DNA of 64,000 bases from Candidatus Zhuqueibacterota bacterium (GCA_034505795.1 JAPDQM010000007.1:1590-65589), one strand, 5' to 3'. Shown: positions 20,407 through 56,727, numbered from the stretch's first letter. The notes: a model not told the origin generated them from the letters alone. Made by a program: numbers and translations.

Positions 20407-20919
20407 AAATAATAGAATTTCGAGCATAGCCTCCATAAAATGCCGAGACACTCCCTTCGATGTTAACACCAATAATGATAAATGTCAGACTGAAGATTTA
20501 ATCTCCAATTAACAACCTCAAATATCATATTGGTTGAAACTACAAAAATAATTCATGAATTCCAAATTGTGTTTTTATTTTATCGAATCACCAAAGCTTG
20601 CTTTGCCTTTTCTTCGCCACCGGTATTTTTGCCACTTAGAGAAACAAATCCGATACCACTTCCATGCCCTTCTGGATTTGCATGCAATAAGTTATGCGAA
20701 GCAACCGACTGCAAAATTAAAAGCACCAAATTTTTTTCTTGATTTTTAGCAATGATTTTCTTAACATTGAATTTAAATTTATCTTTCATTTTAAAAATTT
20801 ATTGATTATATTTGAGTCCTTGGTTTTGAAATCTGCTATCTGAATAAATTCAAGTTATGTTTTGAATATCGTCTCGTTTTGTTTTGCTGATGGGGACGCG
20901 ATGTCTTGAAGAGGAGTTG

Positions 20920-23601: not shown

Positions 23602-23671
23602 CGATGTCAAATTTGGTCCCAGCTAAAATCACGGGATAATTTGCATCCAGCGTAACATGGAGGAATTGACT

Positions 23672-25039
23672 ATGGAAAAATACATCATTTTCATGTTTGT
23701 CATATTTCTGGCGACGACATTGTCCCTCGCTCAGGAACGCGAATTGGCTGTCACTGTTTATAACAACGATCTGGCAGTGATCAAGGACATGCGATCGCTG
23801 GAACTGGCAAAGGGCGTTTCGGAGCTGAAGTATCAGGACGTGGCCGCGGCCATTGACCCCACGTCTGTGCATTTCCGATCGCTCACCGCGCCAGATAAGG
23901 TAGGGATTCTGGAACAGAATTATGAGTACGATCTGATCAACGCCGATAAAATTGCCCAAAAATATGTCGATAAAAATATCACAGTCCAGTTGAAGGATAA
24001 AAAAGTCTTCAAAGGCATGTTGCTGAGCTTCGATGGCGCTAGTCTCATTTTAAAAACCGATTCGGATACGGTGAAACTGATCAGCCGGGAAAATATCGCC
24101 AATATTGATTTTCCCAAATTGCCCGAGGGGCTGATTACCCGGCCCACGTTGGTCTGGAAAATTCAAAATGACCAGCCGGGCAAGCATAAAACTGAAGTCA
24201 GCTATTTGACCTCAGCGATGAATTGGCATGCAGAATATGTCGCCGTATCCAAGGATGATGACCAGCGATTGGAACTCAGCGCCTGGGTTTCGATTGATAA
24301 CCGTTCTGGCGCAACTTATCCAAATGCAAAATTAAAACTAATCGCTGGAGAAGTCCATCGCGTTACACCTGCAGTGCCGATGCGGGCGATGGGCAAAGCC
24401 TATGCGCTAGAAGCGATGGATATGTCTGTGCCCCAATTTGAAGAGAAGCCATTCTTCGAATATCATCTTTATACCCTGAGCCGCCCCGCGACCATCAGCA
24501 ATAATCAGATTAAGCAGATTTCGCTCTTCCCTACTGCATCTACCAACGTAAAAAAAATCTACTCGTATGAATTTCAGCGGGCGGCTGAGGATGTGCGGGT
24601 GAATCTGGAATTTGTGAACAGCAAGGAAAGCGGTTTGGGCATGCCCCTGCCAGCAGGAAAGGTTCGAGTGTATAAACAGGACCAGGCCGATGGCTCGTTG
24701 GAATATGTGGGGGAGGACATGGTCGAGCATACACCCAAGGATGAAAAAGTCCGATTATATCTCGGCAATGCCTTCGACATCAAGCCAGAGCGGGCCATGA
24801 CCAATAAAGTATCGACCGGAAAGAATTCTTATGAAGAAACCTACCAGATCAAAATTCGAAATCACAAAGATAGCCCGGTCGAAATTCTGGTGGTAGAAAA
24901 ATTCTATGGCTTCTGGGAGATCAAGCGCTCCAGTCATACGTACAAAAAGAAAGATGCCTATACGGCTGAATTCACGGTAGCCGTCCCAAAAGATCAGGAG
25001 GCGGTGTTAGAATTTACCGTGGCGTATAGGACGCGCTAA
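23672..25039 (+). CDS. DUF4139-like (mucoidy-inhibitor MuiA-like) secreted protein
   Basis: Signal peptide MEKYIIFMFVIFLATTLSLAQ with GGAGGA SD. N-terminal TVYNNDLAVIKDMRSLELAKG pattern recalls DUF4139/4140. The family call is from memory. Confidence 0.45.
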   Translation: MEKYIIFMFVIFLATTLSLAQERELAVTVYNNDLAVIKDMRSLELAKGVSELKYQDVAAAIDPTSVHFRSLTAPDKVGILEQNYEYDLINADKIAQKYVDKNITVQLKDKKVFKGMLLSFDGASLILKTDSDTVKLISRENIANIDFPKLPEGLITRPTLVWKIQNDQPGKHKTEVSYLTSAMNWHAEYVAVSKDDDQRLELSAWVSIDNRSGATYPNAKLKLIAGEVHRVTPAVPMRAMGKAYALEAMDMSVPQFEEKPFFEYHLYTLSRPATISNNQIKQISLFPTASTNVKKIYSYEFQRAAEDVRVNLEFVNSKESGLGMPLPAGKVRVYKQDQADGSLEYVGEDMVEHTPKDEKVRLYLGNAFDIKPERAMTNKVSTGKNSYEETYQIKIRNHKDSPVEILVVEKFYGFWEIKRSSHTYKKKDAYTAEFTVAVPKDQEAVLEFTVAYRTR

Positions 25040-25059
25040 ATTTTTGCTGGCATCCCCAA

Positions 25060-27186
25060 ATGGGATCAGATAAATTGAACGAAGCACCTCGTACATTTTT
25101 AGCCACGGCGGTCCAATTTCTCAAGGGGATCGGTGAAAAACGCGCCGAGGCCTTAAAAAGTGTTGGGATTGCCACCATTGCGGATCTGTTCGAATACTAC
25201 CCTCGGCGTTACCTGGATCGCAGCCACATCACTCCTATACGAAAGCTGCGTCCCAATGAGACGGCGACGGTGGTGGGTAAAGTGGTCAATTCGGGCATTA
25301 AGAAGGGTGCGCGTGCGCGATTTATTCTGCTGCTTACCGACAACACGGGATTTTTATCCTGTGTTTGGTTTGCCCAACTTCCTTACTGGCAAAAGAAGTT
25401 CAAGCCCGGCCAAACATTGGCGGTAAGCGGCAAAGTGGGTTATTTCGGTGGACTTCAGATGGTTCATCCGGAATTTGATCTCTTGTCCGATACGGCAGAG
25501 GACCACGAGGATGAATTTTTGCACACTGGCAAAATCATTCCCCTTTATCCATCCTCGGAGTCGCTTGCTCGTGTCGGACTGGATAGCCGGGGATTTCGGA
25601 GAATCATCCATCATCTGGTGCGCAGCTATGCGGATCAGATCGATGATGCTATGCCGACTGCAATTGTGGAGCGACACCATTTGATTTCGCTTCGGGATGC
25701 ATATAAAAATATTCACTTCCCGGACAATTTCGAACGATTGCAACAAGCTCGCCGACGACTGAAATTCGATGAGCTTTTTTTTATGCAACTGCTGTTGGCA
25801 TTTCGAAAGCAACGTGTCATGCAACAGCAGAAAATGATGGCAGTGCCCACGGTCGGCGAGGGCGTCAAAGAATTGATCAATAAGTTGCCATTCAAATTGA
25901 CCGATGCGCAGCGAAAGGTACTTCGTGAAATCTATGCCGATTTGAAAAAGCCCTATCCCATGTATCGCTTGCTCCAGGGCGATGTGGGGTCGGGTAAAAC
26001 CATTGTCGCTTTGGTGACGATGTTGATGGCAATTGAGAATGGCTATCAGACCGCACTGATGGCGCCAACAGAAATCTTAGCTGAGCAGCATTATTTGACT
26101 TTTCGTCATTTACTGGAGGGCATGGCCATTGATGTCCGTTTGCTGATTGGGGGCCAACCAAAGAGCGAACGGACCGCTATTATGCAGGCCATTGAAAGCG
26201 GCGACTGTGATATTGTGGTGGGAACCCATGCGATCATTCAAGAAGGGGTTCATTTTCATCGATTGGGTTTGGTAGTCATTGATGAACAACATCGTTTTGG
26301 CGTCGAGCAACGCGCATTGCTAACCGAAAAAGGAATGAATCCTGAAGTGTTGGTCATGACCGCAACCCCAATTCCGCGCACGCTATCGCTCACTTTATAT
26401 GGCGACCTGGATGTTTCGATAATCGATGAGCTGCCTGCGGGCCGGGTGCCAGTGAAAACCTACTGGCGGTATGAAGACAAGCGCAATGAAATTTACGGAT
26501 TTGTGAAATCCAAGATCGATCAAGGTCAGCAGGCCTATATTGTTTTTCCATTAATTGAAGAATCAGAGAAATTGGATTTGAAAGCCGCCATCGATAGCTA
26601 CGAGCAAATGTCTCGGGGCATTTTTTCAGGCTATCGGCTGGCCTTGTTGCATGGTCGGATGAAAAGTGCGGAAAAAGATGCGATCATGACCGCTTTTAAA
26701 AACGGCGACATTCAGATTCTGGTGTCGACCACGGTCATCGAAGTTGGTGTTGATGTTCCCACGGCCACGGTCATGGTTATCGAAAATGCCGAACGCTTCG
26801 GGCTCACGCAGCTCCATCAATTGCGGGGCCGCGTAGGACGCGGGGCTGAGCAATCGTATTGCATACTGATTGCCCGTCAGGGCCTGACTGAGGATGCACT
26901 CACCCGGCTGCGAACGATGACCGAGACAAATGATGGTTTCAAAATTGCCGAAGTGGATCTGCAATTGCGAGGGCCTGGTGAACTATTTGGTACCCGGCAG
27001 CATGGAATGCCGGACCTAAAAATTGCTGATCCCCTAACGGATACTGAACTGCTGCTTAGCGCTCGCACTGAAGCGTTTGAGCTGGTCAATAATTCTGAGG
27101 CGTTTTACGCCTTAGCCCTAAACCTGCAACACAATGCGCTGGTTCGACGCTATTATGATAAACTCGAACTATCGGGGATTGGCTAA
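25060..27186 (+). CDS. recG: ATP-dependent DNA helicase RecG
   Basis: N-terminal wedge/HhH region (LKGIGEKRAEALKSVGIATIADLFEYYPRRY), Walker A GDVGSGKT, DEQH box (VIDEQHRFGV), helicase C motifs. Confidence 0.9.
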   Translation: MGSDKLNEAPRTFLATAVQFLKGIGEKRAEALKSVGIATIADLFEYYPRRYLDRSHITPIRKLRPNETATVVGKVVNSGIKKGARARFILLLTDNTGFLSCVWFAQLPYWQKKFKPGQTLAVSGKVGYFGGLQMVHPEFDLLSDTAEDHEDEFLHTGKIIPLYPSSESLARVGLDSRGFRRIIHHLVRSYADQIDDAMPTAIVERHHLISLRDAYKNIHFPDNFERLQQARRRLKFDELFFMQLLLAFRKQRVMQQQKMMAVPTVGEGVKELINKLPFKLTDAQRKVLREIYADLKKPYPMYRLLQGDVGSGKTIVALVTMLMAIENGYQTALMAPTEILAEQHYLTFRHLLEGMAIDVRLLIGGQPKSERTAIMQAIESGDCDIVVGTHAIIQEGVHFHRLGLVVIDEQHRFGVEQRALLTEKGMNPEVLVMTATPIPRTLSLTLYGDLDVSIIDELPAGRVPVKTYWRYEDKRNEIYGFVKSKIDQGQQAYIVFPLIEESEKLDLKAAIDSYEQMSRGIFSGYRLALLHGRMKSAEKDAIMTAFKNGDIQILVSTTVIEVGVDVPTATVMVIENAERFGLTQLHQLRGRVGRGAEQSYCILIARQGLTEDALTRLRTMTETNDGFKIAEVDLQLRGPGELFGTRQHGMPDLKIADPLTDTELLLSARTEAFELVNNSEAFYALALNLQHNALVRRYYDKLELSGIG

Positions 27187-27286
27187 CGCGACCTCCAATT
27201 TCATGCATCCAACTTAACGGCCGGAAATGATATTAATCTGACGTCGGCAAAGTATTGTATAATTCTTTGAATCTTGAGGGAGAAGA

Positions 27287-27589
27287 ATGATGGCCGATAA
27301 ATTAACTGAGAAGGAACAGGGCAAATTTTTATTTTCTTATCTGGTCATGACCTATCAAACAGCCGCCTTGATCAATTTGGGACATCTAAAAGATCCAGTC
27401 ACTGAAAAAGTGACCAGAGATCTGGAGAAGGCGAGATTGTCCATTGATATCCTGGGAATGCTGCAGGCAAAAACCGCAGGCAATCTTGCAGCCGATGAAG
27501 CTGAGTTGCTGAACAATGTGCTGCGAGATCTGCGACTGCTGTTTGTGAAAGAGTCAGAGAAAAAGAATCAAGCTGGAACGAAGAGCTAA
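27287..27589 (+). CDS. DUF1844-like small protein
   Basis: 100 aa. The pattern FLFSYLVMTYQTAALINLG...ARLSIDILGMLQAKTAGNL matches my recollection of the DUF1844 family. GAGGGAGAAG SD. Confidence 0.45.
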   Translation: MMADKLTEKEQGKFLFSYLVMTYQTAALINLGHLKDPVTEKVTRDLEKARLSIDILGMLQAKTAGNLAADEAELLNNVLRDLRLLFVKESEKKNQAGTKS

Positions 27590-28067
27590 CGAGCAGGGCC
27601 AAGCGTTACGTCGGATTGAATGATAGCGCATCAACTGCGATTTGTTCAAAAATAGTTGTTGGTCATTCAAGACCATCTATTCGCCAACTGGGTAATGAAG
27701 CTGACAAATTACAGGCATCGCCAGTTGCAGAATATGGGGTAATTTGATGTGACCTTGCTTAAGGCTATTTTAATCATAGGTGGCTACCCCTTTAATTAGC
27801 GATTTGGTTTCGCGGCTTAGCCAAATTTTAGCTTGCTTTAATATAAAATTTTGCTTACGTTTTAATTTGCATTAAGGTGGTCGGGGCTTAAATAAAATAG
27901 CACATCGCAGCACCCTGATTAGCGTGCATATTTAAGGATTTTCAGATTTGTTGGCCGATCGTTTTTAACGATGCAAAGGCTACGGCTGGTTTAAATACGA
28001 ATCATTGCATTCTTCGCTGGTGGACAAGCTGGCGATGCAGAAACCTGTTCATTCTTGCAGTTTTTTT

Positions 28068-28853
28068 ATGGGAACAACACATTCAACACGTGAGCATTGG
28101 GAAAAATTCTGGCAAGGACGCACCGATATCGATGCGGTTTATTCCACGGGTGACCGAATTTTTGACAATTTGCGCCAGCTAACACCACTTGCCAGGCGCA
28201 AGGTATTGGAAGTGGGAGCTGGCAGCGGTCGGGACAGCTTTCGGTTCGCGGCCGCAGGCGCTACAGTTTATGTTCTGGACTACGCTACCCGCTCGCTGGC
28301 GATTGTGCAGCATCTGAATCGAAGCAGCCCTGCTGTGGTCCATGCCATTCAAGCAGATGCGTTACACATTCCGATGCCGGATAATTCGTTGGACATCATC
28401 TTTCATCAGGGGTTGCTGGAGCATTTCAGAGACCCGTTGCCGCTGTTGCAGGAACAGTATCGTGTGCTGAAGCCCGGCGGCTGGCTGCTGGTGGATGTGC
28501 CGCAGCGGTATCATTACTATACGCTGATGAAACATGCGTTGATTTTTTTCAATAGGTGGTTCGCAGGCTGGGAAACAGAATTTTCAATTCATGAGTTAAA
28601 AAAATTACTCGAGCGAGCTGGATTTGTGGCGCGGCATCAATATGGCAGTTGGATGCGCCCCAGTTTGGCCTATCGCGTCATTCGGGAGGCGGCCAAAAAG
28701 ATTCGCATCAAGTTGCCGCTTTATCCGCGTGGTTTTGAACCGGTAGCGCAGCTACGTGATCGGATGCGGACAAAGCTGGCGCAACAACCATGGGCATTTT
28801 ACACCTTTCTCGATATTGGAGTCGTTGGACAAAAGCAGATGATTGAAAAATAG
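28068..28853 (+). CDS. class I SAM-dependent methyltransferase
   Basis: Motif I VLEVGAGSGRD, motif post-I VYVLDYA, LKPGGWLL. Start moved to ATG 28068 (MGTTHSTREHWEKFW) from the longer 28005 ORF. Confidence 0.7.
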   Translation: MGTTHSTREHWEKFWQGRTDIDAVYSTGDRIFDNLRQLTPLARRKVLEVGAGSGRDSFRFAAAGATVYVLDYATRSLAIVQHLNRSSPAVVHAIQADALHIPMPDNSLDIIFHQGLLEHFRDPLPLLQEQYRVLKPGGWLLVDVPQRYHYYTLMKHALIFFNRWFAGWETEFSIHELKKLLERAGFVARHQYGSWMRPSLAYRVIREAAKKIRIKLPLYPRGFEPVAQLRDRMRTKLAQQPWAFYTFLDIGVVGQKQMIEK

Positions 28854-28859
28854 GCGATC

Positions 28860-29975
28860 ATGGGATATAGGATACTGGTAATCAACTGGCAGGATATTCG
28901 GAATCCCCTGGGAGGTGGCGCCGAAGTTCATTGTCATGAAATTTTCAAACGCATTGCCCAACAGGGTCATGACGTAACGCTGCTGTGCAGCCGCCATCGC
29001 GACTTACCTTCTGACGAAGTTATCGATGGCATCCGTGTGATTCGCCGTGGGCATCGTTATCTGTTCAATTTTTGGGTACCATGGCTTTATCGTCAATGTG
29101 CCCGGCAGCAGCAGTTTGACGTGGTGATCGATGATATCAATAAAATCCCGTTTTTTACCCCTCTTTATGTAAGGGAGCCGCTCATAGGAATCATTCACCA
29201 TTTGTTCGGATCCAGTATTTTTCTGGAATCCACACTGCCGGTGGCGCTATATGTCACGGCGGCTGAGAGCTTGGTGCCGAGCGTTTATCGAAATATCCCT
29301 TTGGCCGTCGTCTCGAATAGTACGAAGCAAGAGCTGATGAGGAAAGGATTTCGTAACGAACAAATATCTCTGGTTCAGAATGCGGTCGAAGCGATCGCTT
29401 ATCCTCATCAACCCGAAAAGCGCTCGCCGACACCAGTTATTGGCTATTTGGGAAGAATCAAAAAATACAAAAGTGTCCATCACCTTCTTCAAGCCTTCGC
29501 CGAGGTCTTGCTGCAGTTGCCCTCGGCAGAACTGCTGGTGGTTGGCGATGGTGATTATTTGCCGCAATTGAAACGGATCGCCAGGCGGCTCGGTATCGAT
29601 GGCAAGGTGCAATTCACCGGTGCCACGACGCAATCCACAAAAATCGATCTACTCAACCGGATGTGGCTGGCAATCAATCCCTCTCCCAAAGAGGGCTGGG
29701 GGTTGACCGTGATCGAAGCCAATAGCTGTGGCGTGCCCGTGATCGCCGCTGATTCCCCTGGTTTACGAGATTCTGTTGTAAACGGCAAAACCGGTTTTCT
29801 ATATCCCTATGGCGATTACCATCGCCTGGCGCAACTGATTATTCAGCTTATTCGAGACGATCGGCTGCGGAATAGCCTGGTTACGCCCTGTCGGGAATGG
29901 GCTCGACAATTTAATTGGGAAGAATCGGCCAGAAAAATGCTGGCACTCATTGAATACGTTTTGTCTCGGAGGTAA
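28860..29975 (+). CDS. GT4-family (GT-B, retaining) glycosyltransferase
   Basis: C-terminal EX7E-type region KEGWGLTVIEANSCGVPVIAADSPGLRDSVVNGKTGFLY. 7-nt gap to the upstream MTase. Confidence 0.8.
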   Translation: MGYRILVINWQDIRNPLGGGAEVHCHEIFKRIAQQGHDVTLLCSRHRDLPSDEVIDGIRVIRRGHRYLFNFWVPWLYRQCARQQQFDVVIDDINKIPFFTPLYVREPLIGIIHHLFGSSIFLESTLPVALYVTAAESLVPSVYRNIPLAVVSNSTKQELMRKGFRNEQISLVQNAVEAIAYPHQPEKRSPTPVIGYLGRIKKYKSVHHLLQAFAEVLLQLPSAELLVVGDGDYLPQLKRIARRLGIDGKVQFTGATTQSTKIDLLNRMWLAINPSPKEGWGLTVIEANSCGVPVIAADSPGLRDSVVNGKTGFLYPYGDYHRLAQLIIQLIRDDRLRNSLVTPCREWARQFNWEESARKMLALIEYVLSRR

Positions 29976-29981
29976 AAGTCA

Positions 29982-32711
29982 ATGCAAAATGACACCCGTC
30001 TTAATCGAATCATTGCAGCAATTGTCTTTCTTATTTCATGGCTGGTTTATTTGCGGACCGTCGCTCCAACCACGTCCTTCTGGGACTGCGGTGAATTCAT
30101 CACCTGCTCCTACATTCTTGGCGTACCACACCCGCCAGGTGCGCCGCTCTATATCCTGGTCGGCCGTATCTTTAGCATGATTCCTTTTGTACAGGACATT
30201 GGGATGAGAGTGAATATAGTATCCACTATCGCCAGTGCCATAACGGTGATGCTGGCTTATTTGATCATCGTCAGGTTGATTACAATGTTTCGTGGTCGAC
30301 CGCAGCAAAACCTGGATCGGCTGATAGTATATGGCAGCGGGGTTATCGGTGCGTTGACTTTCGCCTTTACCGATTCCTTCTGGTTCAATGCCGTGGAAGC
30401 GGAAGTGTATGCCATCAGCATGTTTTTCACCTCATTGGTGCTATGGCTTATTCTGGTCTGGTATGAGAAAGCCGATGATCCAAATAGTGATAAGTACATT
30501 TTACTGATCGCGTTTTCCCTGGGATTGGCCATCGGCGTCCACCTGCTGATGATTCTGGCGATGCCCGCATTGTTCCTGATCGTCTATTTTCGAAAATATC
30601 AAAAAATCGAATGGAAGAATTTTTGGATGTTCGTGGGCTTATCATTCCTTGCGTTCGTGGCACTCTACCCCGGTATTGTGAAGTGGTTACCGAATTTGTC
30701 ATTATGGATGACACGAAAAACTGGTGCTGAATTCACAACATTCTTCTTCCTGGTATTCATTGGCGCATTGCTATACGGAGTCTATTATACCTATCGGACA
30801 AAGAAGCGGCTGGCGTTTCTTATTTGTGCCTCGTTCTTCCTGGTTCTATTGGCATCCTCAACCTACACCTCATTGTACATTCGTTCCGGGCTCAATCCCG
30901 ATATTGATGAAAACGATCCCGAAAATCTCGAAAATTTGGTTAGCTATTTGAATCGAGAGCAGTACGGCGACTGGAGTTATGTCGATCGCCGTGCGCCACT
31001 GTGGGACTACCAGATTGAAAAAATGTACCTGCGTTATTTTGGCTGGCAATTTATTGGCCAGGGCCAAACTCTGGATGATGAAGGCCGAATTGTCGAGAAT
31101 TATAGCCTTAATGGTTTGTTGGGGTTGCCATTCCTGGTGGGCTTGATCGGCATGGCGTTTCATTTTCGTAAAGATTGGAAAAATGCCTCGGCAATTATGC
31201 TTCTGTTCTTATTTACGGGAATTGCAATTGTGCTGTATTTGAATCAGGAAGATCCCCAGCCCCGTGAGCGAGATTATGTCTATGTCGGCTCATTCTTTGC
31301 TTTCGCACTGTGGATCGGAATTGGCATCACCGCGATCATCGACTATTTGCGTAAGTTGTCGAGCAAGTTTCCTGACTGGCAAAAATTGGCAATCATTGGG
31401 ATCGCCATGTTATTGCTCGCATTTATTCTGCCAGCAAATATGTTGGCCCATAATTTTAAATCGCATGATCGTACCGGCGAATATGTGGCTTACGACTATT
31501 CCTATAACATTCTGCAAAGTTGTGAGCCCAATGCGATTCTCTTTACCAATGGCGACAACGACACCTTCCCACTCTGGTTTCTGCAATATGTCTATGGCAT
31601 CCGGAAGGATGTTCGGGTGGTTAATTTGAGCCTTTTAAATACGCATTGGTATATCAAGCAATTGCGCGATCAGGAACCGCGCGTGCCCATCAGTTTGAGC
31701 GATGCTCAAATCATGAGCCTGCAGCCGCAGTATTGGCCTGAACCGCGGCCGATCCGCTTGGAAGTACCGCAAGACGCCTATCTCCGTGACCGCTCGGAAG
31801 TGTTGGGCGCCAAGCAAACTCTGCTGGCCGACACCAGCAAGCCACCTGAAATCACCTTCAAGTTGGAACCAACCCTCTATGGCAAAGGTATTCGGGTCCA
31901 GGATCTGATGATCCTGGATATCCTAAGGACTAATCGTTTCCGACGTCCGATATATTTTGCTTTAACCGTTTCGCGTGACAATCAGATCAATCTTTATGAT
32001 TATCTGCGGATGGATGGTCTGGTCTTTAAAATCGTTACCTATCCCACAAAAGATCTGCCCCTCTCCCCTACTCATCTGAAAGCGAATTTATTTGACAGAT
32101 TCCAGTATCGGAACTTAAATAATCCCGACGTCTATTACAACGAGAATATCAAGGGGCTGCTGCGCAACTATCAAGGAGCATTTTACAGCCTGGCGCAATT
32201 CTACGGCCGAGAACGGATGTTCGATAAAATGACTTCGGTGCTGGACAAGTTGACCACGGTTATGCCCGATTCGATTATTCCCATGCGCAAGGAATTACAG
32301 TTCGAGATGGGACGGTTGTATTATATCGGCGGTCAACAGGATAAATTTAAGGACATTCTTTATAAAATGATGAAGCGCGGCGATGTTTCTCTCGATGAAA
32401 AATTGCAATATGCCAGCTACTATGCCCAGCTTTATCCCACTGAGGCTTCTAAAGCGGTAGATCTGGTCAAACAGCTCCAGGACTGGTTTCCCAAAAATGC
32501 CGAGCCAACCTACTGGCTGGCCAGTCACTATTTGCGCACGCGAGAATATCAAAGCAGCATCGATGTGCTGAATCAATGGATCGCCAAAAACCCAGGTGAC
32601 AAAAATGCAGCGGATCAATTGCGGTCATTGCATCAGCTTATCGAGCAATCAAAACGAGCCGATTCGACGGCCAATCAGATCCGAAGTGATAGCGTGACAA
32701 CAGTAGAATGA
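29982..32711 (+). CDS. DUF2723/TMEM260-like polytopic GT-C-fold glycosyltransferase with C-terminal TPR region (paralog A)
   Basis: N-terminal LRTVAPTTSFWDCGEFITCSYILGVPHPPGAPLYILVGRIF matches the DUF2723 signature (acidic DxGE motif in the first extracytoplasmic loop, as in PMT/ArnT/TMEM260). About 11+ TM helices, then a TPR-like helical tail. 909 aa. Confidence 0.65.
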   Translation: MQNDTRLNRIIAAIVFLISWLVYLRTVAPTTSFWDCGEFITCSYILGVPHPPGAPLYILVGRIFSMIPFVQDIGMRVNIVSTIASAITVMLAYLIIVRLITMFRGRPQQNLDRLIVYGSGVIGALTFAFTDSFWFNAVEAEVYAISMFFTSLVLWLILVWYEKADDPNSDKYILLIAFSLGLAIGVHLLMILAMPALFLIVYFRKYQKIEWKNFWMFVGLSFLAFVALYPGIVKWLPNLSLWMTRKTGAEFTTFFFLVFIGALLYGVYYTYRTKKRLAFLICASFFLVLLASSTYTSLYIRSGLNPDIDENDPENLENLVSYLNREQYGDWSYVDRRAPLWDYQIEKMYLRYFGWQFIGQGQTLDDEGRIVENYSLNGLLGLPFLVGLIGMAFHFRKDWKNASAIMLLFLFTGIAIVLYLNQEDPQPRERDYVYVGSFFAFALWIGIGITAIIDYLRKLSSKFPDWQKLAIIGIAMLLLAFILPANMLAHNFKSHDRTGEYVAYDYSYNILQSCEPNAILFTNGDNDTFPLWFLQYVYGIRKDVRVVNLSLLNTHWYIKQLRDQEPRVPISLSDAQIMSLQPQYWPEPRPIRLEVPQDAYLRDRSEVLGAKQTLLADTSKPPEITFKLEPTLYGKGIRVQDLMILDILRTNRFRRPIYFALTVSRDNQINLYDYLRMDGLVFKIVTYPTKDLPLSPTHLKANLFDRFQYRNLNNPDVYYNENIKGLLRNYQGAFYSLAQFYGRERMFDKMTSVLDKLTTVMPDSIIPMRKELQFEMGRLYYIGGQQDKFKDILYKMMKRGDVSLDEKLQYASYYAQLYPTEASKAVDLVKQLQDWFPKNAEPTYWLASHYLRTREYQSSIDVLNQWIAKNPGDKNAADQLRSLHQLIEQSKRADSTANQIRSDSVTTVE

Positions 32712-32728
32712 AAGTGCGAGGCCTAAAA

Positions 32729-35410
32729 ATGGATCGAGAACTGTTCATTCATCGGTTGGGTGCAGCACTGGTGTTTATTTTCTCTTTGATTGTTTATAGC
32801 CTCACCATTGCTCCAACGACGTCATTTTGGGACTGCGGAGAATTCATTACCTGTGCATATATTTTGGGCGTTCCCCATCCGCCCGGGGCACCATTTTATC
32901 TGCTGCTGGGGCGAATCTTTTCCATGATCCCCTGGGCAGCAGATATTGGCTTGCGCGTTAACCTCATTTCCGCGATTGCCACCGCACTTACCGTGATGCT
33001 GACATATCTAATTATTGTCCGATTGATTAAGCTATGGCGTGGTCAGATTCGATCGGGCTCCGACCGATTGATTCATTATGGCAGCGCTATTATCGGCGCG
33101 CTGGCCTTTGCCTTTTCCGATTCCCTGTGGTTCAATGCCGTCGAGGCTGAAGTTTATGCCATCAGCATGTTTTTCACCGCGATTGTGCTCTGGCTAATTT
33201 TGGTCTGGCATGAAAAAGCCGATGATCCTCATAGTGATAAATATTTATTCCTCATCGCCTATTCCATCGGTTTGGCCATCGGTATTCATCTATTGAACAT
33301 CCTGGCACTGCCAGCAATATTTTTGATCTATTACTTCCGGCGTTATCAATTTCGCTGGTCGTCCTTTGCGGCGCTGATCGGAATCGGCTTGTTAATTTTT
33401 ATCGGGATCTATCCGGGCATTGTAAAGTGGCTGCCCAATTCAGCCCTTAATATGCAGCGACAATTTGGGCCGGAGCTGACCGCTGCCTTCTTTATTGCTA
33501 TGGCGGTAATGCTATGCCTGGTCCTCTGGTGGGCCTGGTTGCGCCGCCATCGTTCTGCTTTGGTGGTCGGGGTTTGCTTGCTCTTAATTTTGATCGGGGC
33601 ATCAACTTTTACCAGCGTTTACTTGCGCTCGCAGTTAAATCCAGCGATCGATGAAAATGATCCAGAAAATCTGGCAAACCTCGTCAGCTATATCAATCGT
33701 GAGCAATATGGCGATTGGAGTATCACCGAACGGCGAGCGCCTCTCTGGGAGTACCAGATCAAGAAAATGTATCTGCGCTATCTGGGTTGGCAGTACATCG
33801 GCAAAGGTACTACGATTGGCCCCGACGGATTCTTAGCTGAAACCATCAGCTTGAGCGGCCTGCTGGGGATTCCCTTTTTGATCGGCCTGCTGGGAATGGT
33901 ACATCATTTTTTCAAAGACTATCGACGCTCTCTGGCAATAATGGTCTTCTTCATCATGACTGGCGTGGCGATTGTCATTTATCTCAACCAAACGGACCCT
34001 CAACCACGGGAGCGCGACTATGTCTATGTGGCGTCTTTCTTTGCTTTTGCAATCTGGATTGGTATTGGGGTCGCCAGCGTGCTGGAATCGCTACTTGACG
34101 GCCATCAGGCGACCAGCCGTAGACAGAAGATAATGGCCATCGGTCTCTGGTTGGTGTTATTCATTTTCATTCCGCTGCGGATGTTGGCGTTCAACTATCA
34201 CTCGCACGATCGCAGCGGCAACTATGTTGCGTATGATTATTCCTACAACCTGCTGCAATCATGTGAGAAGGATGCAATTTTATTTACAAATGGCGACAAC
34301 GATACCTTTCCGCTCTGGTTTTTGCAGTATGTTGAAAATATCCGACCGGATATTCGGGTGGTAAACTTGAGCTTACTCAATACGCCCTGGTATATCAAGC
34401 AGCTTCGAGATCAGCCGCCACGGGTGCCCATCAGCCTGGTAGATGCTCAGATCGACCGCCTGAGTACTACCTATTGGCCGGAGAAAAAGCCAGTGTCAAT
34501 TGATGTGCCGCTGGAAGCTTATCAAAAGGCGCTCGATGATCTTGAACAACGGCAGGAGTTTGTTCCCAAAACCAGCACTGGTTCCCCTAAGATTAGCTTT
34601 GAACTGGGGCCAACTTTTATGGGCCAGGCAATACGGATTCAGGATATCATGATTTTGAATATCATTGCTGCCAATCGCTTCCGACAACCGATCTATTTTG
34701 CTGTCACGGTATCACCGGATAATTTGCTAAACCTGCATGACTATTTGCGCATGGATGGCCTGGCTTACAAGTTGGTGACATATCTGGGCGACAAAATCTC
34801 ACCTTCACGTCTGAGAGAAAACCTATTTGAAAAATTTCGCTATCGCAATCTCAACAATCCAAAGATCTACTACGATGATAATATCATTGGTCTCTTAATC
34901 AATTATCGCTCCGGATTTTTGCGGCTGGCGAATTTCTATCGGCAAGAAAAAATGACCGCTGAGATGCTGGCTACGCTGGACAGGATGGAGCAAATGATCC
35001 CTGAGAATGTCATTCCTATTCAGGATCGTCGCCTATCTTTAGGTATTGGTCAGTTGTATCTGGAAGCCGGCCGGCCCGAAGAATTCGCACGGCGGCTCGA
35101 GCTGTGGCTGCAAAAGCCTGGAATTTCCCTGGAGGAACGGCTCGAATTTGCACAGGTCTATTATCAAATGTTAGCTGATGCACCACGATCCGAAGCGATA
35201 GCCCGAACCATCATTCAAGAGGCGCCGCAGTTTCTGCGCGCCTACTATTGGCTGCTCAATTTATATGCCGAAACCCAGGCCTATCAGAAGGGACTGCAGC
35301 TTGCCGATGAGCTGCTGCAACGCCAACCTAATGATGTGCAGGCCCTGGCACGACGTCAGCAATTTCAACAGAAGCTGCAATTGCTGCCGGATTCGTCGAA
35401 AAGCAAGTAA
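32729..35410 (+). CDS. DUF2723/TMEM260-like polytopic GT-C-fold glycosyltransferase with C-terminal TPR region (paralog B)
   Basis: Collinear paralog of the previous gene (same SFWDCGEFITCAYILGVPHPPGAPFYLLLGRIFSMIP, NGDNDTFPLWFLQYV, VVNLSLLNT.WYIKQLRDQ.PRVPISL blocks). Start set at MDREL, which aligns with the paralog A N-terminus. The longer ORF from 32708 would overlap gene A by 4 nt. Confidence 0.65.
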   Translation: MDRELFIHRLGAALVFIFSLIVYSLTIAPTTSFWDCGEFITCAYILGVPHPPGAPFYLLLGRIFSMIPWAADIGLRVNLISAIATALTVMLTYLIIVRLIKLWRGQIRSGSDRLIHYGSAIIGALAFAFSDSLWFNAVEAEVYAISMFFTAIVLWLILVWHEKADDPHSDKYLFLIAYSIGLAIGIHLLNILALPAIFLIYYFRRYQFRWSSFAALIGIGLLIFIGIYPGIVKWLPNSALNMQRQFGPELTAAFFIAMAVMLCLVLWWAWLRRHRSALVVGVCLLLILIGASTFTSVYLRSQLNPAIDENDPENLANLVSYINREQYGDWSITERRAPLWEYQIKKMYLRYLGWQYIGKGTTIGPDGFLAETISLSGLLGIPFLIGLLGMVHHFFKDYRRSLAIMVFFIMTGVAIVIYLNQTDPQPRERDYVYVASFFAFAIWIGIGVASVLESLLDGHQATSRRQKIMAIGLWLVLFIFIPLRMLAFNYHSHDRSGNYVAYDYSYNLLQSCEKDAILFTNGDNDTFPLWFLQYVENIRPDIRVVNLSLLNTPWYIKQLRDQPPRVPISLVDAQIDRLSTTYWPEKKPVSIDVPLEAYQKALDDLEQRQEFVPKTSTGSPKISFELGPTFMGQAIRIQDIMILNIIAANRFRQPIYFAVTVSPDNLLNLHDYLRMDGLAYKLVTYLGDKISPSRLRENLFEKFRYRNLNNPKIYYDDNIIGLLINYRSGFLRLANFYRQEKMTAEMLATLDRMEQMIPENVIPIQDRRLSLGIGQLYLEAGRPEEFARRLELWLQKPGISLEERLEFAQVYYQMLADAPRSEAIARTIIQEAPQFLRAYYWLLNLYAETQAYQKGLQLADELLQRQPNDVQALARRQQFQQKLQLLPDSSKSK

Positions 35411-35468
35411 TTAGCCGGGACCTTTTATTGGGGTGAATTGACAAAGGCACTATTTAACGAGGTATGAT

Positions 35469-36422
35469 TTGTTTCGTAGAATTGGAATTCCAATATTAAA
35501 AATAGGCATTAGTTCATTTTTAATCGGGTGGTTGCTTGTCCGATTAGGCCCACGAGATATTTTTGATCGCTTTCTATCCGCCAATATCTGGTGGATTCTT
35601 TTAGCCATCATCGTGTTTAGTTTGAGCAATATTTTTGGTGCTCTGCAGTGGCAACTTTTAATGAAAACCAAATCCATTCATTTGCCCTGGAGCCATGTGC
35701 TTGCTTATTATTATGTGGGGCTATTCTTCAACAATTTTCTTATCGGCAATGTCGGCGGAGATGCGATTCGGGTATACGATATTGCCAGATTGTCTGGGGA
35801 TCTCCCCCATGCGATCTCCACTGTTTTTTTTGATCGATTGATTGGCTTTTTTGTAATGACAACGCTGGCCTTGCTATCTGGTTTGTTCTGGCACAATATT
35901 TTTCAATCCAATTCGCTGGAGACAATTACCATCATCATTTTCTTATTGTGGGTGGTATCATTTGTATTTCTGTTCAATGAAAATCTCGCCAGTCGAATTG
36001 GGTGGCTCTTTCGATTTATGCTCACGCCCAAAATGAACCATAAACTCAGAGCCGTGTATCAGAGCATCAATGCTTTTAAACATGAACGACGCATGTTGCT
36101 CACCATTGGCCTCATTTCGCTCTTGGTGCAATCGTTGCGGGTGCTGGTTCACTATTATGCCGCATTATCAGTTGGCGTGCAACTGCATCTTAAATATTTT
36201 ATCATATTCATTCCTGTTGTGGCGCTGCTCTCAAGCCTGCCCATTTCGATTGGCGGCATTGGCATTCGGGAAGGTAGCGCCGTCGCAATGTTTTCGCAGG
36301 TGAATTCCCTGCCGCCAGAATCCATTGTCGCGTTTGAATTTTTAGCCTATCTGATTGGCTTAATCGCCACTATCCCTGGCGGTATATTTTTCATATTGCG
36401 CCGGGAAAAATTCGATGCTTAA
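35469..36422 (+). CDS. flippase-like / LPG-synthase-TM-domain (UPF0104) membrane protein
   Basis: TTG start. Polytopic. FFNNFLIGNVGGDAIRVYDI motif typical of the PF03706 'flippase-like domain'. Confidence 0.55.
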   Translation: MFRRIGIPILKIGISSFLIGWLLVRLGPRDIFDRFLSANIWWILLAIIVFSLSNIFGALQWQLLMKTKSIHLPWSHVLAYYYVGLFFNNFLIGNVGGDAIRVYDIARLSGDLPHAISTVFFDRLIGFFVMTTLALLSGLFWHNIFQSNSLETITIIIFLLWVVSFVFLFNENLASRIGWLFRFMLTPKMNHKLRAVYQSINAFKHERRMLLTIGLISLLVQSLRVLVHYYAALSVGVQLHLKYFIIFIPVVALLSSLPISIGGIGIREGSAVAMFSQVNSLPPESIVAFEFLAYLIGLIATIPGGIFFILRREKFDA

Positions 36423-36571: not shown

Positions 36572-37603
36572 ATGAAAAGATCCATTGTTACTTGCATATT
36601 GCTTTCATCATTAATATCGTTGGTGCTCGTTTTCAACGGCTGTTTGCGAAGCAAAACGCCTTTGGGGTTGGACAGCGAAATCCGCGTGGTAGCCGATTCC
36701 ACCATCTGGCAACAGGCTGAACCTACTTTGCGAGAGATTTTTGAAAAAACCGAAAATATGCCGCAACCAGAAAAATTGTACCTGCTAATTCCCGAGGAAC
36801 CTAACAAAGCGAAACGGTTCAAAAATATCATTTTCATCGCCACGCTGGAGGCAACCGACAAGTTATCAGCGACAATCGTATCCGGACTTTCTGACCAGGC
36901 TCGAAGCCGTGTGCAGCAAGGTTCCATCCTTTTTGTCAAAAGGGATGAATGGGTAAAAGGACAGCTTCTCCTTTTCCTCATCGGCCGTGATATGCCAACT
37001 TTGCTCTCCCAGATGGATGCCATGCGCTCCGAAATATTCTTCCAGATTGATGATTATTGGAATCAATTTCATAAGAACATCCTTTACCGAACCCGCGAAC
37101 AGGTCGATGTCGAAAAACAGTTGCTAAAGAATTATGGCTGGACAATCCGTGTCCCAATTGATTTCCAACTGGACGTGCAATCGGCCAAGGATCGATTTGT
37201 CATGTTTCGCCGAACCATCCCGTATCGCTGGTTTTCAGTTTTCTGGATCGACGCCACCGATCCCAGCATTATCACCAAAGAGTGGTGCATCGCTAAGCGC
37301 AATGAGATTGGCAAGCTGTTTTTTGAAAATGAAGTAGTCGAAGAAACCTATGAGCCGGTGATCGCGGAAGAAACCATCTTTCTGAATCGTCGCGCACTAC
37401 GGCTAAAGGGACTATGGAAGGATGATGCTAAGGTGGCAGGCGGACCATTTCGCCTGTACTGCTTTTTTGATCGGCCAACGGAACGCATCTATTTCATTGA
37501 CATGCACATTTTTGCGCCCAATGTCCAGCGGAATAAATTGCATTACTTCCGACAGATGGAGATCATTGCCAACACATTTCGCACAACATTGGATCCGCAG
37601 TAA
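36572..37603 (+). CDS. lipoprotein of unknown function (DUF4837-like)
   Basis: Excellent SD CAGGAGGAGGAAATT. Signal plus lipobox LVLVFNGC. No catalytic motifs. Confidence 0.45.
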   Translation: MKRSIVTCILLSSLISLVLVFNGCLRSKTPLGLDSEIRVVADSTIWQQAEPTLREIFEKTENMPQPEKLYLLIPEEPNKAKRFKNIIFIATLEATDKLSATIVSGLSDQARSRVQQGSILFVKRDEWVKGQLLLFLIGRDMPTLLSQMDAMRSEIFFQIDDYWNQFHKNILYRTREQVDVEKQLLKNYGWTIRVPIDFQLDVQSAKDRFVMFRRTIPYRWFSVFWIDATDPSIITKEWCIAKRNEIGKLFFENEVVEETYEPVIAEETIFLNRRALRLKGLWKDDAKVAGGPFRLYCFFDRPTERIYFIDMHIFAPNVQRNKLHYFRQMEIIANTFRTTLDPQ

Positions 37604-37895
37604 TTCTAGAAAACTATTTCGCCTGCTGCGTGCGTTCTCCTGGGGGCTATTTCGTGGCTAATAAATGATTCAAATTTGGGCTGCGTACGCGGCGCAAATA
37701 TTAATAGGCTATTTCACACTTGGCTTGCTATCGGAGGCTGTAACGGAGAGGGAGAGAATCTATTATACCAGAGCCTTAAATCGCCAGTTTATTTAGCAAG
37801 ATTTATAAGGCAGGGTCACTTGGAGGAAAAAATGCAAAAAGATACCAGGCGTATTCTTCAAGCTGTCAAATTTTTTCTGCTTCCCGACCCTTTCA

Positions 37896-39143
37896 CTACC
37901 CCTCAGCAATGCTTTTCGGAAAAGCGGCCTGTTTTAGCCGCATTAGCTTTTCTTCCTCCTCAGCGATTGTGTGGCGTGGCTCTTTTGATGTCAGATCCGC
38001 TAATTCAGTTAAATACAGAAATCCGCCCATATAGAGTTTCCCCGGCCCATAAACTGGAGCAAAGCGAATTTGCACCAACTGCTGGTGCACCAGGGTCTTG
38101 AATGCGATGGAGTTGAACCGCGCTCGGGCATTTAAAGTAGATAGCACTTCGGTCAACCAATGAACGCCATCACCGAGGGGCAAATCGAATACGGTTAATC
38201 CCACCACCTTCTCTTTGGGCATTCCCAGGATAATTTCTGCAGTCTGATTCAAAAAGATGATCCGATTTTCGGTATTGCAGAAAATTAAACCATCCGACAG
38301 GCCACTCAACATTAGATCGAGCAAACTTCGATCAAACAATGATGGCATTTCCGCTTTGTGTGGTTTCACTGGCGTCTGAAAATTGATCATCACCTGGTCG
38401 ATCTGGTTGCTATCGTTAAAAATCGGTAGCGCCTGAATTTTTATTTCGCTACCCAATTCTGCCGATTGCTTTCGACAGAGGCAAGGTCCATAATACGAAC
38501 TTTTGCATTGCTGCACCTTTCGTAGTGGACAGACGCCATCAGCAATCTGGCATGGCTGCGCCAGAGCGCAGAGTTGTTCATAACATTTCTTGCCAACCGT
38601 CTGCGAACGTTGATATTGGAAGGAATCGAAAAACGCGTCATTGGCTTCGATGATTTCGAATTGATCGCTGATGATCAAGAGCGGATGAGGATTAATATTC
38701 ATTGCCGCCCAAAAATATTGCCAGGAGCGTTTGGGATCGGTCGCGATTGGAAGCTTGAAAGCGGATTTATTTCGTCGTGATTGCCAGACTTCGCTTTTCA
38801 ATAGTTCCACCAGAGCCGTGGCATAGCCAGCATCTTTAATTAACAAAAAATCATTGCGCGCCGATATGGCCATATTCAAGCGCCTGAATTCCAGACTGTC
38901 AGCAAGCACCACAATAGGTATAGCTTCGCTATGAAGGGCAATTTCCTGATAAGCAGCCATGCTGTCCGACTCCGAGCCAGTGGTATCCAATAGCAAGAAA
39001 TCATAGGAAGATAATTTGAATCGATGCCAGCAATCACGTACCGAGATGGCAAAGTCAACCTTCAATTGCGGCAATTTGACCTGCAAGGTATCTTGAAGGT
39101 CTTTGACTTCATGGTATCGAAAACCGATGAGAAGCAAATTCAT
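37896..39143 (-). CDS. atypical receiver (REC)-PAS-PAS signalling protein without output domain; Cys-rich PAS insert
   Basis: The N-terminal REC-like fold keeps a phospho-acceptor-position Asp (DFLLLDT) and Lys (LLIKD) but lacks the N-terminal acidic pair. Two PAS-like regions follow (ISDQFEIIEANDAFFDSF...; GLIFCNTENRIIFLNQTAEIILG). An 8-Cys cluster CYEQLCALAQPCQIADGVCPLRKVQQCKSSYYGPCLC sits inside. Confidence 0.55.
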   Translation of the reverse strand: MNLLLIGFRYHEVKDLQDTLQVKLPQLKVDFAISVRDCWHRFKLSSYDFLLLDTTGSESDSMAAYQEIALHSEAIPIVVLADSLEFRRLNMAISARNDFLLIKDAGYATALVELLKSEVWQSRRNKSAFKLPIATDPKRSWQYFWAAMNINPHPLLIISDQFEIIEANDAFFDSFQYQRSQTVGKKCYEQLCALAQPCQIADGVCPLRKVQQCKSSYYGPCLCRKQSAELGSEIKIQALPIFNDSNQIDQVMINFQTPVKPHKAEMPSLFDRSLLDLMLSGLSDGLIFCNTENRIIFLNQTAEIILGMPKEKVVGLTVFDLPLGDGVHWLTEVLSTLNARARFNSIAFKTLVHQQLVQIRFAPVYGPGKLYMGGFLYLTELADLTSKEPRHTIAEEEEKLMRLKQAAFPKSIAEG

Positions 39144-42489: not shown

Positions 42490-43066
42490 GTCATCGCCTC
42501 ATTTGTTTAGCCGTGTAATTTAATACTTTTTTGCAAATAGTCAACAACTTTTTTCCAGCAATATGTTTATCCACCCCAACCCTAACAGCGCCTCTTAGCA
42601 AGTTGCGCGGTTAGGCATTCGTCTCGAGTCGAATTGTCAGCGATCGGTCTTCTTAAAAGACCAACCGCTTCACGATAATTTCAGCTAACAATTTTAAGAC
42701 TTCAAAATGAATTTAATGGAAGAAACGCTTTCAGCGAAGGAATCAAATTGTTTCAGCAACGAACAGTTGCTTGTATTCAGATACAATTTTGTATTTAGCA
42801 CAGACTGCAGCGTAGACTCCGAGCGACCCATGAGGCAATTTCATCGCCGGCTCAGATCGCTGGGACATGTCGTCGGTGCTGATAGTTTTTATTTTAATTA
42901 TGAGATGATCGGTGCAATAGAAAATTGCATGGATTAACGACCACTAAAAAAATGCAAACACCAGCCCAACACGGCATGGTATTTGCAAAAATCGCCCACA
43001 GATCAATTTCCTAAGATCGTATTCCCTCTAAATCGAGCAGTTGTGAATCAAGCAGGAGTATCACGA

Positions 43067-49970: not shown

Positions 49971-50101
49971 ACCCAGCAAAAATTGCCTTGGGAACTTTGT
50001 TCGTGAAATAATTCACTCTGCTGGTCAATCTTACAGTGACAGCTAATACACTTCCTGACATTTTTGCCACCACTATTTTCAGTCCTGCAGGCGGAGGCAG
50101 C

Positions 50102-56715: not shown

Positions 56716-56727
56716 TCTGCTCTTTAT

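Follow-up and report, generated by a model that had tools for sequence, protein, structure and literature searches.

What would a bacterium do with two large, adjacent membrane enzymes that belong to the family of a human protein O-mannosyltransferase? This question is raised by a stretch of 64,000 nucleotides from a Candidatus Zhuqueibacterota bacterium (GCA_034505795.1 JAPDQM010000007.1:1590-65589), which we analyzed as a whole and refer to as the window, counting positions from its first letter. An earlier note, written from the sequence alone, had singled out positions 28068-36422 as a glycosylation locus built around two tandem paralogous glycosyltransferases of the GT-C class. Our preferred answer is that the locus is a six-gene periplasmic glycosylation operon, whose two TMEM260-family (GT117) transferases are both active, serve different clients, and O-glycosylate proteins; we give this reading a probability of about 0.6. 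The two enzymes, which we call paralogs A and B, are encoded as follows.

29982-32711 (+): paralog A, a GT-C enzyme of the TMEM260 family (GT117), 909 residues; PF11028 E 4.5e-67
32729-35410 (+): paralog B, a GT-C enzyme of the TMEM260 family, 893 residues; PF11028 E 3.8e-68

Human TMEM260 (CAZy family GT117) is the protein O-mannosyltransferase of the endoplasmic reticulum that acts on IPT domains. By the sequence criteria that we applied, the assignment of paralogs A and B to its family is solid, save for two features: the number of transmembrane (TM) helices, which is 13 rather than 11, and the position of R355, discussed below. Both paralogs score far above the cut-off of the Pfam family PF11028 (TMEM260-like, formerly DUF2723), with 225.7 and 229.2 bits against 24.2, and they cover 176-178 of its 179 profile positions; PF28495 (TMEM260_2), a family of the newer Pfam releases, is precomputed on all homologs of the paralogs. 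The best PDB sequence match is human TMEM260 itself (9RQL/9RQM/9RQN), at E 3.9e-18 for the single sequence, and a 51-sequence profile matches 9RQL at E 3.2e-26. Comparison with a TMEM260 alignment by hhalign gives a probability of 99.7% over 422 columns, which join residues 13-572 of A to residues 30-484 of the human protein, and BLASTP aligns paralog B with human residues 32-484 at E 8.5e-25. The identity to human TMEM260 is only 23-28%. The identification of DUF2723/TMEM260-like GT-C enzymes made in the earlier note stands; no profile search assigned the N-terminal domain to a family outside the glycosyltransferases, and the N-terminal motif quoted there is present in both paralogs. The word ‘novel’, on the other hand, was too strong, because the proteins are on record in databases as ‘DUF2723 domain-containing’ or, at NCBI, as ‘protein O-mannosyl-transferase family’, and the Pfam name of the domain is TMEM260-like. 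The wider family is large: a library clustered at 50% identity yields 9,320 clusters with a threshold of E<=1e-10, and 1,762 when this is tightened to E<=1e-30. The AlphaFold2 model of paralog A is confident (predicted local distance difference test, pLDDT, 84; predicted template modelling score, pTM, 0.82), and its top Foldseek matches are PglB and STT3, with ArnT also among the top structural matches.

We next ask whether the active site of TMEM260 is retained. According to a cryo-electron microscopy preprint on TMEM260, the mannose is touched by D52 and H67 in the first luminal loop, by Y267 in the donor-loading loop, and by R355 in the tenth TM helix (TMH10), R264 contacts the phosphate, and D441, in a luminal Rossmann-like domain, is the general base (10.64898/2026.03.17.711096). 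The same preprint reports that replacing any of D52, H67, R264, Y267, R355 or D441 abolishes activity or leaves about 20% of it, as is the case for R355A and D52E (10.64898/2026.03.17.711096). We rebuilt human TMEM260 from overlapping fragments over residues 30-484, which stop short of the tetratricopeptide repeats (TPR); in this reconstruction the residues named in the preprint fall at the right numbers. Five of the six residues defined by mutagenesis (D52, H67, R264, Y267 and D441) are identical at the aligned positions. D52 corresponds to D35 of paralog A and H67 to H50, with E55 aligned to E38; R264 and Y267, in LREEYG, correspond to R325 and Y328, in NREQYG; and D441, in LLRGDLPG, corresponds to D525, in FTNGDNDTFP. 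The motifs of paralog A lie at the following places.

30063-30152 (+): sugar-recognition loop, residues 28-57, with D35 and H50; placed by the alignments, predicted periplasmic
30954-30965 (+): donor-loading loop, R325-E-Q-Y328, equivalent to R264-E-E-Y267 of TMEM260; placed by hhalign
31254-31277 (+): PQPRERDY, residues 425-432, in the predicted periplasmic loop before the helix equivalent to TMH10; R428 and R430 invariant
31548-31571 (+): NGDNDTFP, residues 523-530, with D525 in place of D441, the proposed general base; placed by the alignments

To assess conservation we used 72 relatives, taken from 84 loci, which represent at least eight phylum-level lineages and share 32-66% identity; they come from KSB1, Calditrichota, Neomarinimicrobiota, Ignavibacteria, Kapaibacteria, Chlorobiaceae, Bacteroidota and Latescibacterota. 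D35, H50, R325, Y328 and D525 are invariant in all 72; D35, like E38, R428 and R430, was part of the patterns with which the loci were retrieved, whereas H50, R325, Y328 and D525 are independent of those patterns. G524, D525, N526, D527, T528 and P530 are likewise invariant in 72 of 72, and they too played no part in the retrieval. Altogether 79 positions are conserved in at least 95% of the relatives, and none of them falls within the TPR. Paralog B keeps all of the catalytic motifs (WDCGEF, VPHPPG, NREQYG, PQPRERDY and TNGDNDTFP), and both copies are apparently active.

The acidic D-x-GE of the first loop had been proposed in the earlier note as the catalytic loop. This was correct in that D35 is the counterpart of D52, but the role that TMEM260 suggests for it is the positioning of the donor, not that of general base. 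The invariant NGDNDTFP motif, which holds the counterpart of the general base, D525, had been overlooked. Since the residues that contact a monophosphate-linked monosaccharide are matched one for one, a polyprenyl-phosphate-hexose is favored as the donor, and we consider it very probable that the paralogs are TMEM260-family GT-C enzymes that use a lipid-phosphate-sugar donor in the periplasm. We are much less sure of the sugar itself: that it is mannose, as in the human enzyme, is possible but doubtful.

Hydropathy and the helices of the AlphaFold2 model together yield 13 TM segments in paralog A. Loop composition was compared in 122 family members: loops on the presumed cytoplasmic side contain 0.27 lysines and arginines per residue and have a net charge of +7.6, as against 0.09 per residue and a net charge of -6.5 for those on the presumed periplasmic side. 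By the positive-inside rule, the DCGE/HPPG loop, the REQY loop, PQPRERDY and the whole C-terminal half are predicted to be periplasmic, so that the acidic motif falls on the periplasmic, and not the cytoplasmic, side. The C-terminal half of paralog A begins with a Rossmann-like alpha/beta domain (residues ~496-720), in which strands and helices alternate at 519-684 in the AlphaFold2 model, and ends with nine TPR-like helices (721-899).

32142-32678 (+): TPR-like domain of paralog A, residues ~721-899, nine helices; TPR_19 E 5e-5, AlphaFold2 helices

In the profile, this region finds consensus TPR proteins with E-values down to 6e-18. As modelled, this C-terminal layout is the ‘wrist-palm-fingers’ plan of TMEM260 in an enlarged form. 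The TPR tail reported in the earlier note is real, but the combination of a Rossmann-like domain and a TPR resembles TMEM260 itself and not the TMTC enzymes. In the human enzyme, an asparagine ladder in the TPR (N602, N638, N642 and N680) holds the acceptor peptide; in the bacterial TPR one conserved asparagine, N729 (88%), opens the domain.

If the two paralogs share their chemistry, then the features that separate them should be sought elsewhere. The alignment of A with B covers 877 residues at 55% identity (1013 bits, far beyond chance), and this identity is distributed very unevenly.

First TM segment and sugar-recognition loop: 67%
TM segments 2-7: 68%
Donor-loading loop: 70%
Palm core: 84%
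Two extra TM helices: 35%
Cytoplasmic loop 451-480: 20%
Palm insert 601-630: 17%
TPR: 29%

The divergence thus lies mostly in the TPR, as had been claimed, at 29% versus 62-84% in the catalytic parts, and there are three further divergent patches. We sorted 122 homologs into 44 of type A, 53 of type B, and 25 that form a single-copy outgroup. Identity in the TPR is 0.49-0.52 within each ortholog clade versus 0.32 between the two, and identity in the catalytic part is 0.77 within clades versus 0.66-0.71 between them. With moderate confidence, we take this pattern to fit acceptor-binding surfaces that are specific to each clade. Because the divergence is found in the TPR and a palm insert, the two enzymes probably have different sets of clients.

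The GT-C gene is present in a single copy in most lineages. The duplication that produced A and B is common to the window and to the related loci L001, L005 and L006. Two other tandem pairs arose independently, one in a KSB1-like lineage (L011:554-5936; 54% pair identity) and one in a metagenome-assembled genome (MAG) of the Bacteroidota (L078:4800-10724; 50%). The copies at L011 and L078 are equidistant from A and B, and these independent duplications show that the duplication is recurrent.

The paralogs stand in a string of genes on one strand, whose other members are the following.

27590-28067 (+): non-coding gap of 478 nucleotides 5' of the operon, the presumed promoter region
28068-28853 (+): class I S-adenosylmethionine-dependent methyltransferase, 261 residues from ATG; Methyltransf_11 E 1.4e-21
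28860-29975 (+): GT4 glycosyltransferase (GT-B fold, retaining family), 371 residues; Glycos_transf_1 E 3e-37, Glyco_transf_4 E 3e-16
35469-36422 (+): flippase-like polytopic membrane protein of the MprF TM-domain family, 317 residues; PF03706 (LPG_synthase_TM) E 3.9e-40
36572-37603 (+): DUF4837 lipoprotein, the last gene of the string, 343 residues; PF16125 E 2.7e-29

The earlier note had listed five genes (methyltransferase, GT4, the two paralogs and the flippase-like protein) separated by gaps of 6-58 bp. All five are present on the plus strand, and the gaps measure 6, 6, 17 (or a 4-nucleotide overlap) and 58 nucleotides. The genes do occupy 28068-36422, but the unit does not end there: it runs one gene further, to DUF4837, and the gene downstream of DUF4837 is on the opposite strand. 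The gap at 27590-28067 is the sole long one in the string. An Rfam scan of this gap gave no match, and the Rfam and tRNA scans were both empty; a scan for sigma-70 sites was uninformative (23 sites versus 18.4 +/- 4.6 expected in shuffles), and terminator-like sites are modestly commoner than in shuffles.

The gene calls are the same in a near-identical KSB1 MAG, GCA_034505935.1 (261, 371, 909, 893, 317 and 343 residues). For the methyltransferase, the longest open reading frame (ORF) begins at TTG 28005. For paralog B, an alternative ATG at 32708 would give 900 residues and overlap the stop codon of paralog A as ATGA. A GAGG lies 5-8 nucleotides 5' of ATG 32729, where public gene calls start the protein, and ATG 32729 is the most likely start on these sequence features. 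Paralog B is 100% identical to NCBI protein P0053 (candidate division KSB1), which starts at M8, and the DUF4837 protein is 100% identical to NCBI protein P0391 of a KSB1 MAG; an exact look-up of paralog A gave no record. Judged by its sequence, the source organism is a member of KSB1 (Zhuqueibacterota-related), in the Fibrobacterota-Chlorobiota-Bacteroidota (FCB) group.

How widely is this arrangement kept? At least 598 species genomes carry the subfamily that has both FWDCGEFI and PQPRERDY. Of the best 80, nearly all bear FCB-type labels, with a few exceptions such as MAGs labelled Actinomycetota (L007) and Chromatiales (L073), and these 80 comprise KSB1, Calditrichota, Neomarinimicrobiota, Kryptonia, Ignavibacteria, Kapaibacteria, Chlorobiaceae, Bacteroidota and Latescibacterota. 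We traced the neighbors of the window's genes on the 84 loci. In KSB1 and Calditrichota the order is either methyltransferase-GT4-GT-C (one or two copies)-flippase-DUF4837 or GT-C-GT2-(methyltransferase)-flippase-DUF4837; in Neomarinimicrobiota it is ValRS-DUF4139-RecG-DUF1844-GT-C-GT2; in Ignavibacteriales and Bacteroidota it is often GT-C-(methyltransferase)-GT4; and many loci of Chlorobiaceae, Kapaibacteria and others are without any of these partners. A GT4 gene adjoins the GT-C gene in about 19 of the 84 loci and a GT2 gene in about 21; GT4 (with or without the methyltransferase) and GT2 appear to be alternative modules. In 18 of the 84, DUF4837 follows the GT-C and flippase genes. Since adjacency is kept despite rearrangement across phyla, the pattern argues for functional coupling.

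A further feature of these neighborhoods is the order ValRS-DUF4139-RecG-DUF1844 directly 5' of the TMEM260-like gene (20884-27589 in the window; also L001-L036, L048, L065 and L071). It is kept in KSB1, Calditrichota and Neomarinimicrobiota, a depth that is unusual where no functional tie between the genes is evident.

Of the partner proteins, the methyltransferase has no TM segment and is cytoplasmic; no specific NCBIfam equivalog was found for it, and its orthologs, at 45-62% identity, adjoin GT4 and GT-C in KSB1, Calditrichota, Ignavibacteriales and Bacteroidota. The GT4 is also without a TM segment, and among solved structures it is closest to a BshA-like protein (2jjm) and to PimA (full length, E 2.5e-15); orthologs beside a GT-C gene share 44-67% identity with it. 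The flippase-like protein scores 80 bits against TIGR00374 (cut-off 43) and has seven TM-like segments, and its gene comes after the GT-C gene in KSB1, Calditrichota and other loci. The flippase candidate belongs to PF03706 and not to the GtrA family.

The DUF4837 protein has a lipoprotein signal, with an invariant lipobox cysteine, Cys24. Its AlphaFold2 model (pLDDT 91) has a C-terminal half with a Mog1/PsbP-like fold, and the Foldseek matches are a photosystem II assembly factor, Mog1, LpqN (a mycobacterial envelope-biogenesis lipoprotein) and Salmonella DcrB. Literature searches returned no paper that mentions the family. The protein may act in the periplasm as a binding or accessory module, or it may be a client of the system.

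We considered the GT2 that lies beside the GT-C gene in sister loci as a synthase of the DPM1/GtrB type and rejected it, because its best matches are instead MftF, PgaC and a rhamnosyltransferase. Among the best matches of a distinct, conserved GT2 of 240 residues are polyprenyl-phosphate glycosyltransferases, namely AglJ, PpgS, dolichyl-phosphate hexose transferase, ArnC and PgfS, each scoring under its curated cut-off. In 14 related loci, from 13 genomes, it is encoded beside RmlD, 1.4-7 kb 3' of the last gene of the cluster; these include L005:17472-18194, which has the same tandem architecture as the window, and L003:19745-20470.

Taken together, these observations suggest the following course of events. 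On the cytoplasmic face, the GT4 would make or extend a polyprenyl-phosphate-linked sugar or very short glycan, which the methyltransferase would modify; in sister lineages a GT2 would replace the GT4, and the priming synthase would be encoded elsewhere in the genome. The presence of a cytoplasmic glycosyltransferase and a methyltransferase leaves room for a di- or oligosaccharide, for which the archaeal Agl pathways based on dolichyl phosphate provide a precedent. The MprF-type flippase-like protein would then carry the lipid-linked donor to the periplasmic leaflet, where each 13-TM paralog would grip its phosphate and sugar via D35, H50, R325 and Y328, plus R428 or R430. The Rossmann-like ‘palm’ would provide D525 as the base while the TPR ‘fingers’ hold an extended polypeptide, on which serine or threonine would be glycosylated with inversion. 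The paralogs would share this chemistry, their TPR and one palm insert having diverged, and the DUF4837 lipoprotein would serve as an accessory factor or be a client. That the acceptor is a protein is a part of this scheme to which we give somewhat better than even odds. A search for the IPT-type sequon, GP..[GA]GG..[ST], over all ORFs of the window gave no match.

Several observations weigh against this reading. The window encodes no polyprenyl-phosphate-sugar synthase, including the 240-residue GT2, and there is no GT2 of any kind among its ORFs of at least 130 residues. To our knowledge GT4, a retaining family, is not known to make polyprenyl-phosphate sugars, and the GT2 of the sister loci is generic, being MftF- or rhamnosyltransferase-like with one C-terminal hydrophobic segment. 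Within the paralogs, two extra TM helices follow TMH7, at about residues 249-301, within a stretch of A (~234-301) that has no counterpart in TMEM260, an insertion that nevertheless keeps the topology and the fold intact. The counterpart of R355 is ambiguous: R428 and R430, which are candidates for this position, precede a helix that HMMER aligns with TMH10, but hhalign leaves the stretch unaligned. The invariance of D35, E38, R428 and R430 is partly by construction, since they were in the retrieval patterns. Only five positions separate the A and B clades cleanly, so that the case for separate specificities is weak on this count. Finally, literature searches returned no paper on any bacterial member of the family or its glycoprotein.

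It is important, therefore, to weigh the scheme against other explanations of the same genes. The main rival, which is live although we judge it unlikely, changes the acceptor: the enzymes would modify lipid A, the lipopolysaccharide (LPS) core or another envelope glycan or lipid, as ArnT does, and the TPR would tether them to an envelope machine instead of a substrate peptide. Such an acceptor would be universal and non-variable, which fits the invariance of the active-site motifs across phyla; ArnT is a top fold match, and LapB, an LPS assembly protein, is another match of the profile's TPR region (E~1e-7). Further hints of LPS, which likewise count against a protein acceptor, come from neighboring genes: an LpxA-like gene follows the TMEM260-like gene in Prosthecochloris (L056:10498-11418), and a heptosyltransferase-II-like GT9 gene follows it in Melioribacter and Ignavibacteriaceae (L046:10971-12044; L037:11055-12125). 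These neighbors were examined in, and are known from, three loci only, and they are absent from the KSB1, Calditrichota and Marinimicrobia clusters. The paralogs, moreover, conserve the general-base aspartate and the palm motif that grips the peptide in TMEM260, their palm-plus-TPR architecture is that of a protein-specific enzyme, and the divergence of the TPR between retained paralogs suggests variable macromolecular clients. A different possibility, which we find no more probable, is that A and B form one obligate heteromer, in the manner of Pmt1-Pmt2 or POMT1-POMT2. The two genes are adjacent (17 nucleotides apart, or with a 4-nucleotide overlap), at least four genomes have retained the pair, at least three tandem duplications were independent events (the KSB1 clade, L011 and L078), and GT-C enzymes of the PMT family act as dimers (PMC12705809). 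Yet the preprint on TMEM260 describes a single ‘molecular hand’ and, in the sections consulted, names no partner (10.64898/2026.03.17.711096), most lineages have a single copy, every catalytic residue is retained in both paralogs, and the divergence sits in the substrate-binding TPR rather than on TM surfaces.

Two further explanations are less probable still. One would make the paralogs O-oligosaccharyltransferases that move a preassembled, methylated short oligosaccharide en bloc instead of a single hexose, and the missing transferase of FCB general O-glycosylation. The cytoplasmic glycosyltransferase and methyltransferase of the operon can only work before flipping, and the set of an AglJ-like GT2, a GT2 or GT4, a methyltransferase, a flippase and a GT-C enzyme recalls the gene set with which Haloferax assembles glycans on dolichyl phosphate. 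PglB and STT3, as noted, are the top Foldseek matches, and, as reported in 2022, neither the O-oligosaccharyltransferase nor the core glycosyltransferases of Bacteroidetes had yet been identified (PMC8729774). We nonetheless think this quite improbable, given that the donor-contact residues of an enzyme for monosaccharide phosphates are conserved one for one and that the cluster has neither a phosphoglycosyltransferase nor Wzx. The other, an ordinary O-antigen, enterobacterial common antigen or capsule locus whose large membrane proteins would serve as polymerases or ligases, is the least probable by far and in effect excluded by the family and fold assignments. The sole hint of it is a sub-threshold Wzy_C match in paralog B (E 0.0088; 16 bits against a cut-off of 31.7), whereas the paralogs have the GT-C fold and an active site of the TMEM260 type, in surroundings of housekeeping genes (ValRS, RecG) with deep synteny. 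We searched the ORFs of at least 130 residues in the window for Wzx, Wzy, WaaL, Wzz, an ABC exporter or a phosphoglycosyltransferase and found none of them; a standard O-antigen locus, which the earlier note had named as grounds for refutation, is therefore rejected.

The reading that we prefer, a TMEM260-type protein O-glycosylation operon, can be placed among known systems. Like TMEM260, the paralogs combine PF11028 with PF28495; a GT-C core is followed by an extracytoplasmic Rossmann-like ‘palm’ and TPR ‘fingers’, with REEY/REQY and GD motifs and an N-in, C-out topology. Unlike TMEM260, they have 13 predicted TM helices versus 11 (a GT-C module of seven and a variable module of four), a palm of ~225 versus ~150 residues and a TPR of nine versus five helices; they occur as tandem paralogs in an operon with a flippase-like protein, a GT4, a methyltransferase and a lipoprotein; and their polyprenol carrier must be bacterial. 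DUF2723 proteins of Verrucomicrobiota and Asgard archaea are nearer to human TMEM260, with 38-48% identity in the N-terminal domain. The PMT/POMT (GT39) and TMTC1-4 (GT105) enzymes share with the paralogs an acidic residue in the first extracytoplasmic loop and the logic of a polyprenyl-phosphate-sugar donor; TMTCs also bear a C-terminal TPR, and PMTs act as paralog heterodimers. In contrast to these, the general base is predicted in the Rossmann-like domain and not in loop 1, and PMT, PMT_2 and MIR (PF02366, PF13231) gave no Pfam match at E<=0.01, the similarity being at the level of the fold only.

In the three-component systems GtrA/GtrB/GtrC, CsbB/GtcA/YfhO and ArnC/ArnEF/ArnT, a cytoplasmic glycosyltransferase works with a small flippase and a GT-C enzyme. 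The present system resembles them in that a GT-C enzyme would use a polyprenyl-monophosphate sugar outside the cytoplasm. It differs in its flippase candidate, which is of the MprF-TM type (PF03706) and not GtrA, EmrE-like or Wzx; in the adjoining glycosyltransferase, which is a GT4 or a generic GT2 and not of the GtrB/ArnC type; in a GT-C enzyme with a TPR and probably a protein acceptor; and in the added methyltransferase and lipoprotein. From PglB, STT3 and AglB (GT66) the paralogs differ in having the donor-binding residues of a monophosphate-monosaccharide enzyme; STT3/GT66 was not matched in Pfam at E<=0.01 and no oligosaccharyltransferase appeared among the PDB sequence matches, oligosaccharyltransferase signature motifs not having been looked for.

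Other genes of the window were also recorded. Large secreted proteins with C-terminal domains of the FlgD_ig/CHU_C type are encoded at 9189-12779 (-), 12810-15206 (-) and 42983-45955 (+). They form a trio that resembles cargo of the type IX secretion system: a 1196-residue Peptidase_C25 protein with propeptide (PorU- or gingipain-like), a PLD-like protein and a PKD/Big_9 protein, with Por_Secre_tail recorded for an ortholog. The link between such cargo and the paralogs that the earlier note suggested is unsupported, and the subfamily also occurs in Chlorobiaceae. A polysaccharide-utilization set at 50036-62721, unrelated to the GT-C operon, comprises a GH3 with PA14, a GH97, a beta-helix protein, a sodium:solute symporter, a pectinesterase, a LacI regulator and a GH8. 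Three ORFs have no Pfam match at E<=1e-5: 1865-3196 (-), 443 residues; 49116-49790 (-), 224 residues; and 37676-38101 (+), 141 residues.

What, then, does the locus add to what was known of the family? A 2023 paper on TMEM260 mentions ‘distant homologs in bacteria’ (PMC10214176). To this the present analysis adds a match, residue by residue, to the structure of 2026, the conserved operon partners (a flippase-like protein, DUF4837, and either GT4 with the methyltransferase or GT2), and the recurrent tandem duplication with divergence focused on the TPR. Since the subfamily is frequently found in a conserved housekeeping position, it probably has a core function in the envelope, one that is unannotated beyond the family name. 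The proposal also bears on an open question, namely the identity of the transferase in Bacteroidota general O-glycosylation. It is a long shot, in our estimation, that the FCB-wide subfamily is the missing periplasmic transferase of that system, adding either the first core sugar or the whole glycan; lineages with tandem paralogs, in that equally speculative event, would split their client proteome between two TPR specificities. If proteins are indeed glycosylated by these enzymes, the third animal O-mannosylation pathway would gain its first bacterial members and would be of prokaryotic ancestry, its active site kept almost residue for residue.

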